A DNA stretch of 64,000 nucleotides from Clytia hemisphaerica (lineage: Eukaryota). The stretch is from the NCBI RefSeq assembly GCF_902728285.1, contig NW_027104315.1, forward strand, positions 275,032 through 339,031, given 5' to 3'. Positions 39,139 to 43,700 of this stretch are shown here, one piece after another (the first letter of the stretch is position 1; every line of letters starts with the position of its first letter). Both the position numbers and the translations under genes were made by a program. Under the pieces are notes generated by a model. The model was not told the DNA's origin, searched no databases, and was given only the letters and a program-made list of their open reading frames with translations.

Positions 39139-39262
39139 ACGGTACATGTTTTTTTATAAGAATATCCAAATTTTGTGAAGCCTTCGGATGTTCTTAACTT
39201 TTTGGATTTTAAGCCTAAAAATGTTCTTATTTTCTCAATTTTGTGATCATTTTTACCCATTT
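39139..39262. mobile_element. Left half of a cacgtttttttataagaac-family MITE, split by the RLE-LINE insertion
   Basis: It aligns to the left half of the 20536 and 57724 copies and ends at the TSD tacccattttcc. Confidence 0.55.
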
Positions 39263-39780
39263 TCCTAGTCTAGCAAGCTAGACGACTAATTTATACATAG
39301 TAGAAATAAAGCAAAAAGTAATGAATGGAACAATTTTAGTCGTCTAGAAACCTTTGTGCACTAACTCCAAACAAAAGGAAAGTGTCAATATTGCAATTAT
39401 AATTTTTTCCTGCTCAAAATTATTCTTGAGAAAAAAAAATATGCGTGGATTTGTGTATTGAAAGTTTTTCATTTGAGTTGATTTCGTTTTGAGAGTTTGT
39501 TGTTGCTTGATAAATTGTTTTCTCGCTACGCAAGTTTCTGCGTAGCTAGCCCCTGTATCTATAAGGCTGGAACACCGGATTCTTCCAGTCGTTTATACAA
39601 ACTAAATCCCGTATTATTATTATTATTACTATTATTTGAGATATATTTTGATAATGTTTCGATAATGCACTATTTATAAAAGTTTTCCTTCTATCGAAGA
39701 TAGATTAGGTACACTTTTTCTATTATAATATTAGAACAAGAACTAAAAAAAAATAAGAAAAATTTAATATTAAGTCTCGA

Positions 39781-40380
39781 TGGAATATCTTAGTAAACAA
39801 TTTTGTAAATATCTTAATAAGAGAGATACACCTTTACTTACCGAGAAATTTTCAAAGTCTTGCAAAACTTTCATTTTGCATTTCTGAAAAATTTGTCGCT
39901 TTCCAAGGCGTCTCATGGAAAACCAAAGTAATTTAGGTGAGACTTAGCAAATAGAATCCGGTTTGATTCGATAAAACTTAGGTATAACAAGAGAAATTTT
40001 TTAATGTATTATCATCGTTCAGGCTAGATTTAGGATGTGAGAATCTGAGTGGATCTGAAATTATCAAAATCCATGAAAATCAAATAAAAGTCGTCGAAAA
40101 TCGTAATTAAATAAAATGTTAAAAATATTTTATAAACATGGTATTGAGACCGCTTAAGCCCTAGAGATAGTGATATAGGTTTATCTTACTTAAGTGTTAA
40201 GAGATATTCCTTTACTCACCGATAAATTTTTCAAATTTGTGCAAAGAAAATGTTTGTTCATCTGCGTGTTTTGAAAATTTTTCCGCTTTCAAAGATGTCT
40301 CGTCAAGGATTTCTGGTATAGAGGACTTAAAGATATACGTAGTTGAAAAAACTTAGAAAGATTAGATCGTGTCCTATATA
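39781..40380. repeat. Two tandem ~400-bp units (about 75% identical) inside the 3' untranslated part of the RLE-type element
   Basis: Unit 39781-39960 aligns with unit 40181-40380 (taagagagatacacctttacttaccgagaaattttcaaag... versus taagagatattcctttactcaccgataaatttttcaaat...). Confidence 0.5.
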
Positions 40381-40567
40381 AAGTAGTTTAATTTTAAGTA
40401 AAGAAGCTAAAGTTTAGGGCTTGTAAAAAGCTAATAGTCGTGTAACTAAAAGTCGGCCCGAGAAAAAATATCTAGAAATATGTGATGTTCCCAAGAGAAC
40501 TATCTTTTGCATTTCATTGACATTGACTTTCAAGTCCATTTTATCATTAATCAGTTTTTCAAATTTT

Positions 40568-43525
40568 TCATGGATTGATCCCATTGCCCCAATAACGATG
40601 GGTATCGTTTTTACTTTTTGTCATGCCCCACAGTTGTTTTATTTCAATAGACAAATCAACATATTTTGTCACTTTCTCGTTTCGTTTCCGTGCGATGTTA
40701 CAATCGAGTGGCACGGCAATGTCTATGATCTGTACCTCTCGTGTTCGTTTGTTGATGACGATGATATCGGGTTTGTTGTGCGCGACTCTTCTGTCCGTTT
40801 GGACAGGAAAGTTCCATAGGATCTTTACATCGTCATTTTCGAGTAGCGGTTCAGGGTCATATTGGTACCATTTGGAAGAGTTAGGTTGGATCATGGCGTG
40901 TTTTTCTGCAAGGAGGAGGTGTATGTATCGGCACACATTGTCATGGCGTTGGGTATATTTGGTTGGTGCAAGGACTGGGCATCCTGAGATGACATGGTGG
41001 ATGGTTTCGGGTTTGGTCTTACAGGCTCTACAGGTGTCGTCATTGGTGGTTTTGAAGATATGTTTTTGGGTGTATTTGGTGGTTATTGCATTTTCTTGGA
41101 TTGCGCAGATGGTTGATTCGGTAGTTCTTTTCAATGTGGAGGATCTTAGCCATGACAATGAAGCGTCTTTGTCGATGTGGGGTTGGTCTAGCGTGATGAA
41201 GAATTGGCCGTGCATGGGTTTTTCTTTGAGGATTTCGAGTTTTTGTTTGGAGCGTTTGGTTTTGACTTGCAATTTCAATTGTGGTTTTGTAAGTTCGTTT
41301 GCTTGGTTTTCGTCAATGTTGAGTTCTGCTAGGTACTTCTCAGCTTTTTGGTGGAGGGATTTTGCTCCTCTGTCGGTTTGTGACGTTGATACTAATATCA
41401 TGAGATGTTCGGTGGAGTTTTTAAGGTATTTACTGTATTGAATGATTTGGTTTTTGTAGAGGTCTGTGATGTTGAGTAAACCTCTTCCTCCATTTCTACG
41501 TGGAATGTACACTCGGGCGACGTCGCTTTTTAGGTGGAGCATGTGATGTTGTCGAAGGACGTTTCTTGTTTGACGGTCAATATCTTCAAGCTCGGTCACG
41601 GACCAATCTAGAACTTGGAATCCATATGAGATTGATGGTACTGCGAAGGTGTTGATCGCTTGGATGGTGTTTTTGCTGTTTAACGAGGATTTTTAAAATT
41701 TTCTTTACTCGGGTAAAGTATTCAGCTCGGAACTTGCGGCGCATTTGCTTCTTGTCGATCTCATTAGATTGTAGCATTCCGAGGTATTTGTATTGGTCGC
41801 GTAGATCAAGTGCTTTGATGGTTTCTTCACTTTGGAGAATAATATCGTTTCCCCGGGTCAACTTTCCTTTTCGAACTGACATGATGTTGCATTTGTCAAG
41901 TCCAAATTGCATGTGGATGTCGTTGCTGAACATTGACACGATTTCGAGGAGGTCTTGGAGATGTTCGTCATTGTTGGCGTACAATTTTCAGGTCATCCAT
42001 GAAAAGCAGGTGGCTGATAGTTGTGCGATTGTTTCTCGGGCCAATTGAGTAGCCGATGGATGTTTCTTTTGATAAGCCAAGAGAGCGGTAGAAGGCTTAT
42101 GACGAAATTCAGCCCAGATGGACAATCTCCTTGAAAGATGCCGTTGTGGATATTAATAGGCTCTGAAGATATAGTGCTGTTTTGCGTTGTGATATTTAGA
42201 GTTGTTTTCCATTTTGTCATTGTAGTTGAAAAGAAGTTTATAAGTTTGTGTGGGAATTTGTGTATTTCTAGTGATCTCCTCAGCCAATCGTGGGGTACAG
42301 AATCGAAAGCTTTTCGGTAATCGATCCATGCTGTTGACAGATTACGTTTTGATTTCTTTGCGTTTCCAAGTATCATGTCGTCAATCAGGAGTTGGTCTAC
42401 GGTTCCTTGGTTTCCTGAGATACCACCTTTTTGCTCTTCGGGGAGTAGATTGAAGGTGTCGAGATGAGACTTCATCCGTTTTGTAATTATACTTGTCATT
42501 ATTTTGTATGTGATTGGCAAGCAAAGTGATGGGTCTGTAGTTCGATGGGATCTCGGTTTGTGGTTTCTTAGGTACGAGTGTTGTTCTGCCCGTGGTGAAC
42601 CATTCAGGAATTGATTGTGGATTATCGACCATTGCGTTGTACACGATCGTTTTCTGATCGTAGATGGAGTTAAACTTGTTCCACCAGAAGTTTTGCAAGC
42701 TGTCAACACCGGGGCTTTTCCAGTTGGCAAAGTTTTTAATAGCCTCCGATATTTCATCTTTGGATATGGGTTGGAACTCGTAAGGTTGGATGTTGATGGT
42801 TTCTTCGTATTCAGCGATCCACGGTGCTTGGCCGTTGTAATTTGCTTCGGTACCTAGGATTGGTCGCCAGAAGTTTTCGATTTCTTGCTTTGACGGTGAT
42901 TTGTCGATTGGAATGCTGGTACCTCTCAAGCTCTTGTAGAATTTATCAGGGCTGTTGACGAAGTCTCTGTTTTCTGTGTACTGTTTTGCTCGTGACTTGT
43001 AGCGCTTAAGTCGGTTGTTTTTTGCAAGAAGCTTTTGTTTCAGACGTTCGCAGGTGGTTACGCGATCTCGTTCGTTGTTGATGTTGTGTTTTCGTCTGAG
43101 ACGGTCGTTGTTTTTTTTCATTTTTGTCGATGGGTTGTCTGCGTTCATCTGTTCGACTTGGCTGATTTCCTTGCGGATTTCGAGGATTTTTGAATCAAGA
43201 CGTTTGACCCATGCTTGTTTCCTTTTTGATGCTTCTTTGTTGGTTATGATACATTGTTTTCGCAGATTGGCGTGTTCTATCGCAGTAAGTGCAAACGCAT
43301 ACGTCATTTCGTTGATTTGTGAGATGTCGTTGCATTGATGGCGATTGACGTCAATTATTTCGTTAACAATGTCACAGCTTCGTGAAAGTTTTTTCAAATC
43401 AAATTTCGATGGTTTCCGAAATTTTTCCCTTTTTTCAAAAGGAGTCAATTTTGAAATGATAAAATGTTCTTCAAATCTTGTTTGAACGTTTTCCCCATCG
43501 TCTCCTTGAACTCTGATGACATTTC
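40568..43525 (-). pseudogene. ORF2-like RT / RLE-endonuclease coding region of the above element, broken into 4 ORF pieces by at least 3 frameshifts
   Basis: ORFs 43448-42381, 42757-41993, 41984-41586 and 41599-40568 are consecutive RT segments in alternating frames. Confidence 0.7.
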
Positions 43526-43575
43526 CTTATTATTATTATTAGTATTGGTATTATTAGTATTACACGCATTATAAA

Positions 43576-43700
43576 CGACTCCAGTCTACCCATTTTCCTT
43601 AAAAATCGGGTGTTTTCGAGTCTGCAAAGCCTTTAAATGTTCTTAACTAGTTCTTAGCCTTATGTTCTTATATAGTTTATTCTTATAATAAAACGTGTAG
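43576..43700. mobile_element. Right half of the same split MITE
   Basis: It begins after the second TSD copy and ends ...gttcttatatagtttattcttataataaaacgtg. Confidence 0.55.

Follow-up and report, generated by a model that had tools for sequence, protein, structure and literature searches.

Within the 64,000-nt stretch of DNA analysed here (the window), the segment at 39139-43700 most probably arose by three-layer nesting, in which a MITE was entered by a carrier repeat and a Dong-like, R4-clade LINE was placed in the TAA tract of that carrier. The 4.3-kb insert in the MITE, taken as one LINE in the initial annotation, is thereby divided into two nested elements, in concordance with a contiguous, LINE-free copy of the carrier in the sequence L012.

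The host MITE, about 230 bp long, is split by an insert of approximately 4.32 kb at 39266-43586. Its terminal inverted repeats are of 22 nt and 91% complementary, the left one pairing with 43678-43699. The following features were recognised in the MITE:

39139 to 39265: left half of the MITE, by alignment to intact copies 20536-20770 and 44208-44426.
39254 to 39265: left copy of the target-site duplication, tacccattttcc, by direct reading of the sequence.
43587 to 43598: right copy of the target-site duplication, tacccattttcc, by direct reading.
43599 to 43700: right half of the MITE, by alignment to the same intact copies.

The contiguity of the two halves in intact copies, as originally described, holds for 39139-39265 and 43587/9-43700 against both copies listed, and a 12-mer is duplicated at the two junctions; the size of the insert, formerly given as 4313 bp, is 4321 bp. 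Other right ends of the carrier family suggest that TA at 43587-88 may be carrier-derived, and if it is assigned to the inserted repeat, the duplication would be of 10 bp, CCCATTTTCC. The duplication in the MITE was made by the carrier repeat, not by the LINE.

The carrier is a non-autonomous repeat of about 415 bp, which supplies end segments of 346 and 26 bp and the TAA tract of the insert. It starts with TAGTCTAGC, ends with CCAGTCTA and has an imperfect TAA-like microsatellite inside. Its parts in the window are:

39266 to 39611: long segment of the carrier, starting TAGTCTAGCAAGC; L012, which the reconstructed carrier matches, has an identical left end.
43527 to 43562: the carrier's imperfect (TAA)n tract, upstream of the LINE 5' end and its target (TRF).
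43563 to 43588: right terminus of the carrier (...ACACGCATTATAAACGACTCCAGTCTA), recurring elsewhere with other flanks.

An uninterrupted carrier copy of 414 bp was found at L012 877-1290, within a hydrozoan ARPC3 transcript. When the window segments 43585-43527 and 39640-39266 were joined, the reconstructed carrier aligned with L012 877-1287 from end to end at 92% identity and free of the LINE. The imperfect TAA pattern is unbroken there (L012 1220-1262), and the junction alignment of L012 with the window thus presents the empty and the filled site. The right terminus, followed by differing flanks, is also present at window positions 36256 and 36388, at L012 1290 and in L013, a shorter derivative sharing the right end; the carrier copies known so far measure 150-415 bp. 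The recurring sequence ataaacgactccagtcta (at 36239 and 36371), earlier considered as a possible LINE target, is actually this conserved right terminus. It should be added that 18-mer matches in metagenome and viral collections were mostly due to chance and gave no extension (L006-L011, L014), only L012 and L013 being real.

With respect to a MITE or DNA transposon as its class, the carrier lacks clear terminal inverted repeats. Its two ends have only TAGNCT in common; subterminal ACGACT/AGTCGT motifs are inverted, and the long segment contains an inverted repeat of 12 bp, CTAGACGACTAA / TTAGTCGTCTAG. The duplication is of 10-12 bp in the MITE, and no clean one is visible around the L012 copy. 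Rfam gave no match to the carrier and ARAGORN no tRNA, and its ends carry neither an A-rich nor a simple-repeat tail, nor poly(A). With no Pol III-type head in either search and no such tail, an assignment to SINEs was rejected; so were Helitron, on account of the duplication, retrozyme, for want of a hammerhead, and a LINE-derived 3' tail, the long segment having no similarity to any LINE relative.

The LINE proper spans 43526 to 39612 on the minus strand, and about 800 nt only of the 1.3-kb 3' region formerly ascribed to it are its own. The coding part comprises:

40446 to 43526, minus strand: LINE ORF, 5'-truncated, with six +1 frameshifts (1039-aa stitched translation; L001 nucleotide alignment).
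41775 to 42575, minus strand: reverse transcriptase, stitched residues 318-586 (Pfam RVT_1, E=1.1e-25).
40931 to 41041, minus strand: CCHC zinc knuckle, C-x2-C-x9-H-x4-C then RH (alignment to the R2 C-terminus).
40628 to 40780, minus strand: restriction-like endonuclease, NKPDIIVIN ... IIDIAVP ... EKVTKY (alignment to the R2 endonuclease).

The stitched translation is 80% identical to P0001, and the frame-corrected stop is TAG at 40448-40446. Compared with the open frame of L001, frameshifts are located near 42525, 42065, 41989, 41694, 40625 and 40459, five of the six being corrected in the stitched translation. The initial annotation had regarded the copy as dead with at least three frameshifts; the verdict holds, and the alignment to L001 raises the count to six. 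About 640 nt are missing from the 5' end, homology to L001 beginning at approximately L001 nt 672-683, and the lost part includes the 5'UTR and about 197 codons with the Myb-like domain. In full-length relatives the start is (AAT)n|TGACGTCG, and the ATG follows some 50 nt later. Owing to the 5' truncation and the six frameshifts the window LINE is non-functional, and the truncation alone makes it non-autonomous. Some of the apparent mutations may be assembly errors, because all frameshifts are +1, no nonsense codon occurs, and an actin copy nearby also has a +1 in a C run.

The proposed order of reverse transcriptase, CCHC block and PD-D-K block was borne out by the Pfam search of the stitched ORF, the alignment to the R2 C-terminus and a comparison of 26 relatives. 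At E<=1 the only solved-structure matches were R2 proteins (8gh6, 8ibw, 9nl2, 9dou), the best at about 1e-23. The knuckle residues C, C, H, C and the RH are at least 90% conserved among the 26 relatives, and this region gives a weak match to Pfam zf-RVT. The PD..D..K residues of the endonuclease block align to KPDLI...VVDV...EKVRHYKDL of R2, with PD, D and K-x2-KY conserved across the relatives compared; the residues of the two blocks are invariant or nearly so among the 26. The lack of an AP endonuclease, noted from the beginning, was judged on relatives because the window copy is 5'-truncated; full-length relatives carry PF00078 only, PF03372 being absent. These relatives have about 200 extra N-terminal residues, which are predicted to contain a Myb-like fold without zinc fingers (AlphaFold pLDDT 92) and in which no Pfam domain, zinc finger or protease was detected. 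The absence of an N-terminal domain from the window LINE is thus partly due to its truncation. A search of metagenome contigs with P0001 returned no relative, and exact look-ups of the 343-aa ORF of the window and of the Clytia protein P0005 gave no record.

As read from its flanks, the LINE targets (TAA)n like Dong, and so do its own relatives. The initial annotation placed the insertion site in the MITE and left the specificity unclear; the LINE however lies within the TAA tract of the carrier and its relatives are flanked by (TAA)n, which makes the specificity clear. TAA repeats stand directly upstream of the window LINE, the relative L001 has (AAT)n at its 5' junction, and the relatives L003 and L004 contain head-to-tail copies with (AAT)n between them. 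Furthermore, among the P0009-family loci (L015-L022), (AAT)n is found exactly 732 nt past the stop codon in all eight; in five of them it also lies 176-218 nt upstream of the ATG.

The 3' end of the LINE shows the following:

40206 to 40310, minus strand: copy A of the 3'UTR hairpin module, with a 103-nt stretch of 73% identity to copy B and a fold in common with it.
39830 to 39916, minus strand: 3'UTR hairpin module, copy B, with a fold common to copy A, two L001 copies and one L002 copy.
39641 to 39730, minus strand: 3'-terminal block with a near-invariant hairpin (core 39675-39715: AGTGTACCTAATCTAT..ATAGAAGGAAAACTTT).
39612 to 39640, minus strand: (TAA)n 3' tail, fused with the leftover target tract (TRF period-3; alignment with (AAT)n tails in L003/L004).

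Imperfect TAA tracts towards both ends of the insert had been pointed out, and TRF places them at 39612-39636 and 43527-43562. In an alignment with four L003/L004 copies, which are related elements from other assemblies, the segment 39715-39612 corresponds to their 3' ends and tails; the 3' block is 75-77% identical to them over about 105 nt and 89% over 38 nt, while the coding sequence of the same copies is only 68% identical to the window LINE. The predicted stem of the terminal hairpin is retained in all five sequences. Instead of the tandem repeats reported earlier for the 3' region, there are two hairpin modules of about 100 nt, lying about 380 nt apart, and TRF finds no array. Pairing in the common fold amounts to 90.5% of cells, slid controls giving 38-61%, and compensatory changes affect 8 of 21 pairs, a covariation that comes from five sequences only. 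Rfam over this region of the window, and likewise over full-length relatives, returned no HDV-like ribozyme, hammerhead, tRNA or SINE.

The LINE is a known kind of element, a Dong-like non-LTR retrotransposon with a restriction-like endonuclease; both this identity and the Dong/R4 likeness suspected earlier are upheld by the domain order and the (TAA)n target and tail. In a neighbour-joining tree, it falls within a Clytia-containing invertebrate clade, outside fish R2-like elements and apart from AP-endonuclease elements. Since no named Dong, R4, Rex6 or HERO reference was among the sequences of this tree, the placement in R4/Dong is feature-based: it draws on the target, the 3' tail, the arrangement of domains and what has been published on these elements. 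Dong of insects, molluscs and cnidarians is known to target (TAA)n, and the N-terminus of R4/Dong elements has a divergent Myb but no zinc fingers (PMC7998251). An AP-endonuclease LINE was rejected on the missing PF03372, and P0115 and P0120, which carry this domain, match at only about 1e-20 to 1e-25 and stay outside the clade. NeSL/Utopia elements carry one to three N-terminal zinc fingers, sometimes an Ulp1 protease, and have spliced-leader, U2 or tRNA targets (PMC4640811); the finger- and protease-free N-termini and the (TAA)n target set the present family apart from them. The R2 clade was dismissed on the lack of fingers in full-length relatives, the (TAA)n target and 23% identity to the R2-like P0117.

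With Dong of Bombyx mori and other Dong-like members of the R4 clade, the family shares a single ORF with reverse transcriptase, C-terminal CCHC knuckle and PD-D-K endonuclease, insertion into (TAA)n with a (TAA)n 3' tail (PMC7998251, PMC3774820), frequent 5' truncation and head-to-tail copies inside one TAA array, as well as, in full-length members, the finger-free Myb-like N-terminus (PMC7998251). In contrast to Dong, the window lineage is hydrozoan-associated, its nearest named relative being a Clytia hemisphaerica protein (49% identity), and its 3'UTR has one or two hairpin modules of about 90 nt, of which we found no description in the literature searched. HDV-like ribozymes are poorly detected by sequence models. 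Rfam at E<=1 found none in L001, L003 and L004, and the window copy has no 5' end, whereas a self-cleaving ribozyme of this type is present at the 5' end of Bombyx Dong and Ascaris R4 (PMC3774820). R2 has in common with the family the order of reverse transcriptase, CCHC and endonuclease, alignable catalytic residues, a Myb-like N-terminal fold and, presumably, a target-primed mechanism with 3'UTR recognition; it differs in identity (about 23%), in the 28S rDNA target and in N-terminal C2H2 fingers (seen in P0117). The arrangement of LINE, carrier and MITE is like that of other nested insertions of transposable elements. The outer duplication is that of the middle element, and nothing is unusual except that this element provides the microsatellite required by the LINE.

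The nesting, the limits of the elements, the domains and the (TAA)n flanks and tails of this copy and its relatives are shown by the sequences; we infer from there an order of events and, by analogy with R2 and Dong, biochemical steps and a role for the hairpins. The MITE of about 230 bp would already have been present when the carrier of about 415 bp entered it, duplicating 10-12 bp, and the Dong-like LINE would then have integrated into the TAA tract of the carrier. The LINE protein may bind its own 3'UTR through the terminal hairpin and one or two hairpins of about 90 nt, and the N-terminal Myb-like domain may guide the complex to (TAA)n DNA. There the endonuclease would nick the TTA strand and the (UAA)n tail of the RNA would pair with the nicked DNA, followed by target-primed reverse transcription. 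For the window copy, reverse transcription or joining probably stopped early, leaving out the first 640 nt or so; lacking the Myb-like domain and 5' region from insertion, it would have been dead on arrival.

That the entire 4.3-kb insert is a single LINE with a restriction-like endonuclease, which entered the MITE with a 12-bp duplication at an unclear or non-(TAA)n target, seems to us very improbable. In its favour, one clean duplication brackets it and no second one is visible around the LINE, because insertions into a TAA tract leave none that can be told. Against it, the 346-bp and 26-bp ends with the TAA tract form a contiguous LINE-free unit of 414 bp in L012, the place to which relatives align with their conserved 3' end and TAA tail is 39715-39612 rather than 39266, and the end segments are unlike any LINE relative. 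Even less credible is a read-through retro-copy, in which the 26 and 346 bp at either side would have been acquired by transduction at a donor locus instead of forming a mobile carrier. Co-transcription of Dong from its upstream flank is known in Bombyx (PMC3774820), and a duplication of 10-12 bp would be compatible with target-primed insertion; against this, the 414-bp unit recurs with identical ends and other flanks in L012, L013 and at window 36.2 kb, which therefore makes it a repeat family with defined termini, and no poly(A) or other tail is found at 39266.

Somewhat more room, although still little, has to be given to composite mobilisation, by which a carrier at another place already contained the LINE and then took this 3.9-kb passenger along into the MITE as one unit. 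The nesting evidence fits this order equally well, since the duplication belongs to the carrier ends and nothing at the locus dates either event. However, known carriers are of 150-415 bp and mobilisation is less likely for a derivative ten times that size; no fewer events are needed than for sequential nesting, and a second copy of the composite is absent from the window. We hold it comparably unlikely that the LINE belongs to another clade with this type of endonuclease, such as HERO or a sister lineage, with independently gained (TAA)n specificity. The tree, being free of named R4/Dong references, leaves room for this, and because some HERO families are microsatellite-specific (PMC4640811), HERO stays a minor rival. 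The (TAA)n target and tail, single ORF and finger-free Myb-like N-terminus nonetheless fit the published R4/Dong, as does the spread over cnidarians, insects and crustaceans (PMC7998251); one relative is from Sitophilus oryzae, which is listed with Dong-like elements (PMC7998251), possibly for a different protein.

For annotation, sequential nesting of LINE, carrier and MITE teaches that a duplication bracketing a LINE was not necessarily made by it, and what seemed a change of target specificity is reduced here to ordinary nesting. R2-type enzymes are under development for site-specific gene insertion; a (TAA)n-reading Myb and endonuclease with a 3'UTR signal is therefore of modest practical interest. 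The window LINE itself is a dead relic, and the (TAA)n-specific R4/Dong elements gain from this locus a lineage associated with hydrozoans. The conserved 3'UTR hairpins are a candidate RNA signal for recognition by the reverse transcriptase, and it is a speculative thought, with rather low odds, that they represent an undescribed recognition module of the R4 clade and, separately, that the carrier spreads TAA landing pads, one transposable element depending on another. As a small mobile repeat with an internal TAA microsatellite, the carrier could in this way seed landing pads for the LINE in a hydrozoan genome.

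The two MITE halves at 39139-39265 and about 43599-43700 match the intact copy at 20536-20770 contiguously, as the initial annotation had proposed, and a further full-length copy (44208-44426, minus strand) is matched in the same manner; it lies in reverse orientation about 500 bp beyond the disrupted one. The outer 22 nt of the MITE are inverted repeats with 91% complementarity, and partial copies of the family were located at 57723-57809, 59472-59589 and 37205-37353. Duplication of the 12-mer tacccattttcc on both sides of the insert was also confirmed; since its copies occupy 39254-39265 and 43587-43598, the insert spans 39266-43586 and thus measures 4321 bp, not 4313 bp as previously assigned. 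Its components are as follows.

Components of the insert in the MITE
39266-39611: 346-bp segment outside both LINE and MITE
43526-39612, minus strand: LINE proper, 3915 bp
39612-39636 and 43527-43562: period-3 tracts (TRF), matching the trinucleotide tracts noted initially
43563-43588: segment of about 26 bp outside both LINE and MITE
near 42525, 42065, 41989, 41694, 40625 and 40459, minus strand: +1 frameshifts in the LINE, relative to the frame of its full-length relative L001

The 1.3-kb 3' region formerly attributed to the LINE does not belong to it in full: the element ends at the TAA tract 39612-39640 and not at 39266, because the 3' ends and tails of relatives align there. Window positions 39715-39612 align to four copies in L003 and L004, over the final ~100 nt of their 3'UTR and their (AAT)n tails; both loci come from a long-read assembly and are 68% identical to the window LINE in coding sequence. 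These copies are arranged head to tail with only (AAT)n tracts in between, and the junction that opens the full-length one, (AAT)n|TGACGTCG, is shared with L001, where (AAT)10 is directly followed by the 5'UTR (TGACGTCG...) and, 51 nt later, by the ATG. In the more distant P0009 family (49% identity), an (AAT)n tract is situated exactly 732 nt past the stop codon in all eight fetched loci, and 176-218 nt before the ATG in five of the eight. Considering these flanks and tails, both target and tail of the LINE family are (TAA)n. It should be added that at least 24 contigs, drawn from many samples, encode one and the same intact 1166-aa ORF of the P0009 family (L015-L022), in every case with a (TAA)n tail 732 nt past the stop codon; this would suggest a Dong-like element that is still active in some frequently sampled marine animal. 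In another relative, the metagenome contig L002, positions 1-200 form a near-perfect palindrome that includes an ATT/AAT tract next to the 5'-truncated LINE, probably an assembly fold-back artefact.

The sequence left between LINE and MITE was traced with the 18-mer ATAAACGACTCCAGTCTA, the last part of the 26-bp segment. Its recurrence, spotted in the initial annotation, was reproduced (36239 and 36371), yet it is no LINE target: it forms the conserved right terminus of a separate repeat, here called the carrier. Both recurrences fall inside a 132-bp unit repeated in tandem at 36193-36458 (two copies, 95% identical), each unit containing the terminal ~65 nt of the carrier (...ATTATCATATAACACGTGTTACRCGGATTATATAAACGACTCCAGTCTA) and, after it, ~67 nt of unrelated origin to the carrier end. 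Scanning of public metagenome contigs for ATAAACGACTCCAGTCTA returned eight matches, of which six were due to chance and two, L012 and L013, were real. A LINE-free carrier, reconstructed by joining 43585-43527 to 39640-39266, was 92% identical to L012 across all 434 nt; L013 contains a derivative shortened by deletion, whose right end is identical. In L012 the carrier comprises 414 bp (877-1290), starts with TAGTCTAGCAAGC exactly as at window position 39266, ends with CCAGTCTA, and its imperfect TTA-like tract runs uninterrupted. L012 and the window therefore represent the empty and the filled site of the LINE insertion, and the duplication in the MITE was made by the carrier of ~415 bp. The carrier right terminus is followed at each of its other occurrences by TA and then by differing flanks; for this reason the TA at 43587-88 probably belongs to the carrier, which leaves a duplication of 10 bp. 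The puzzling target choice noted initially is thereby removed: the LINE entered (TAA)n, as expected, whereas the element that struck the MITE was the small, microsatellite-bearing carrier.

The L012 copy lies in an ARPC3 transcript, within its 3'UTR, and because the encoded protein is 89% identical to that of Clytia hemisphaerica and about 74% to anthozoan ones, the carrier family lives in a hydrozoan, from which kind of animal the window very probably derives as well. Both carrier ends have short palindromes, and subterminal ACGACT/AGTCGT motifs are inverted; convincing terminal inverted repeats, an A-rich tail, a tRNA-like head or an Rfam match were not found in it.

The minus-strand LINE protein, stitched across frameshifts to 1039 residues, matched RVT_1 in Pfam (E=1e-25), and the only solved structures matching at E<=1 were R2 retrotransposon proteins (E about 1e-23). 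The CCHC knuckle and the KPD...D...K endonuclease fall in a second stretch aligned to R2 proteins, and their residues are conserved across 26 relatives. Close relatives found by protein search came from metagenome assemblies, with identities of 80%, 79% and 71%; for a protein of Clytia hemisphaerica the figure was 49%. R4/Dong elements combine reverse transcriptase and restriction-like endonuclease (RLE) with a highly diverged Myb domain and no N-terminal fingers, and in insects, molluscs and cnidarians they are reported to target (TAA)n (PMC7998251), a combination that the LINE family matches exactly. In contrast, N-terminal fingers are carried by NeSL and Utopia elements (PMC4640811) and by R2, as seen here in the R2-like protein P0117.

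In a neighbour-joining tree, the window LINE grouped with its relatives P0001-P0003, adjoining a Clytia group within a large invertebrate clade including insects and crustaceans, while AP-endonuclease LINEs and fish R2-like proteins fell outside the clade holding it. Since named sequences of Dong, R4 or HERO were not part of this tree, the probable R4/Dong membership is based on the target, the tail and the domain architecture; affiliation with HERO-like elements is a minor alternative to it. The RLE-type, Dong-like identity proposed initially was correct. Two plus-strand ORFs of 188 and 177 aa (3153-3719 and 51142-51675), which resemble the C-terminal portions of different non-LTR reverse transcriptases, are unrelated to this LINE. 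The stretch 51831-54941 holds long ORFs on both strands, made of Pro/Ser/His-rich short repeats (...SPEPPTPAVHSPE...), and is the peak of GC content (0.44) and GC skew (+0.39, then -0.27); near-identical stretches at 52204-52806 (minus) and 54026-54679 (plus) suggest a large inverted duplication.

The window copy is dead, as claimed. Its homology to L001 sets in only around L001 nt 672-683, immediately past the tract 43527-43562, so that ~640 nt, i.e. the 5'UTR and about 197 codons, are missing; without 5'UTR and Myb-like domain it could not have been autonomous. Six frameshifts, all +1, were counted where at least three had been noted initially, with no nonsense codons relative to the L001 open frame; once the frame is corrected, the ORF terminates with TAG at 40448-40446. 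Some of these frameshifts may be assembly errors instead of decay, because the minus-strand actin gene (28323-29703) also has its frame broken by a +1 insertion, located in a run of C at about 28860, so that either the gene is a pseudogene or the indel arose in assembly; the last exons of this gene and of the plus-strand one (19553-20353) are 98.9% identical. In L001 itself, a lone TAG at 763-765 interrupts an otherwise open frame of 1220 codons, which is why gene calling yielded two separate ORFs; the window has an Arg codon there (FEK*EKF in L001, FEKREKF in the window).

Within 39715-39612, a terminal hairpin block of ~40 nt is nearly invariant despite the 32% coding divergence from L003/L004. 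The window has two copies of a hairpin module of ~90 nt (40310-40206 and 39916-39830); L001 likewise has two, and L002 has one. These five share a two-stem fold (z-scores -1.6 to -4.6), with 90.5% of cells paired against 38-61% when partners were slid, and compensatory changes in 8 of 21 pairs against 0-2 in slid controls. Drawn from five sequences, these figures are suggestive but no proof. The tandem repeats ascribed to the 3' region correspond to these two modules of the window and not to an array, none being detected by TRF; only a module of ~100 nt is clearly duplicated in the 3'UTR. Terminal hairpin and module would fit a role in RNA recognition.

By analogy with R2 and published Dong elements, the LINE would be transcribed from flanking sequence, and the 5' end of its transcript may be freed by a self-cleaving ribozyme, as was demonstrated with a (TAA)7 co-transcript of Bombyx Dong (PMC3774820); no such ribozyme was detectable here with Rfam. 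The protein would then bind its own 3'UTR, the Myb-like domain would bring the complex to (TAA)n, where the DNA would be nicked by the endonuclease, and the (UAA)n tail could pair with the nicked TTA strand, priming reverse transcription. Such elements have already been reported from cnidarians; mildly new here are only the hairpins conserved in the 3'UTR and the carrier, which fits no class.
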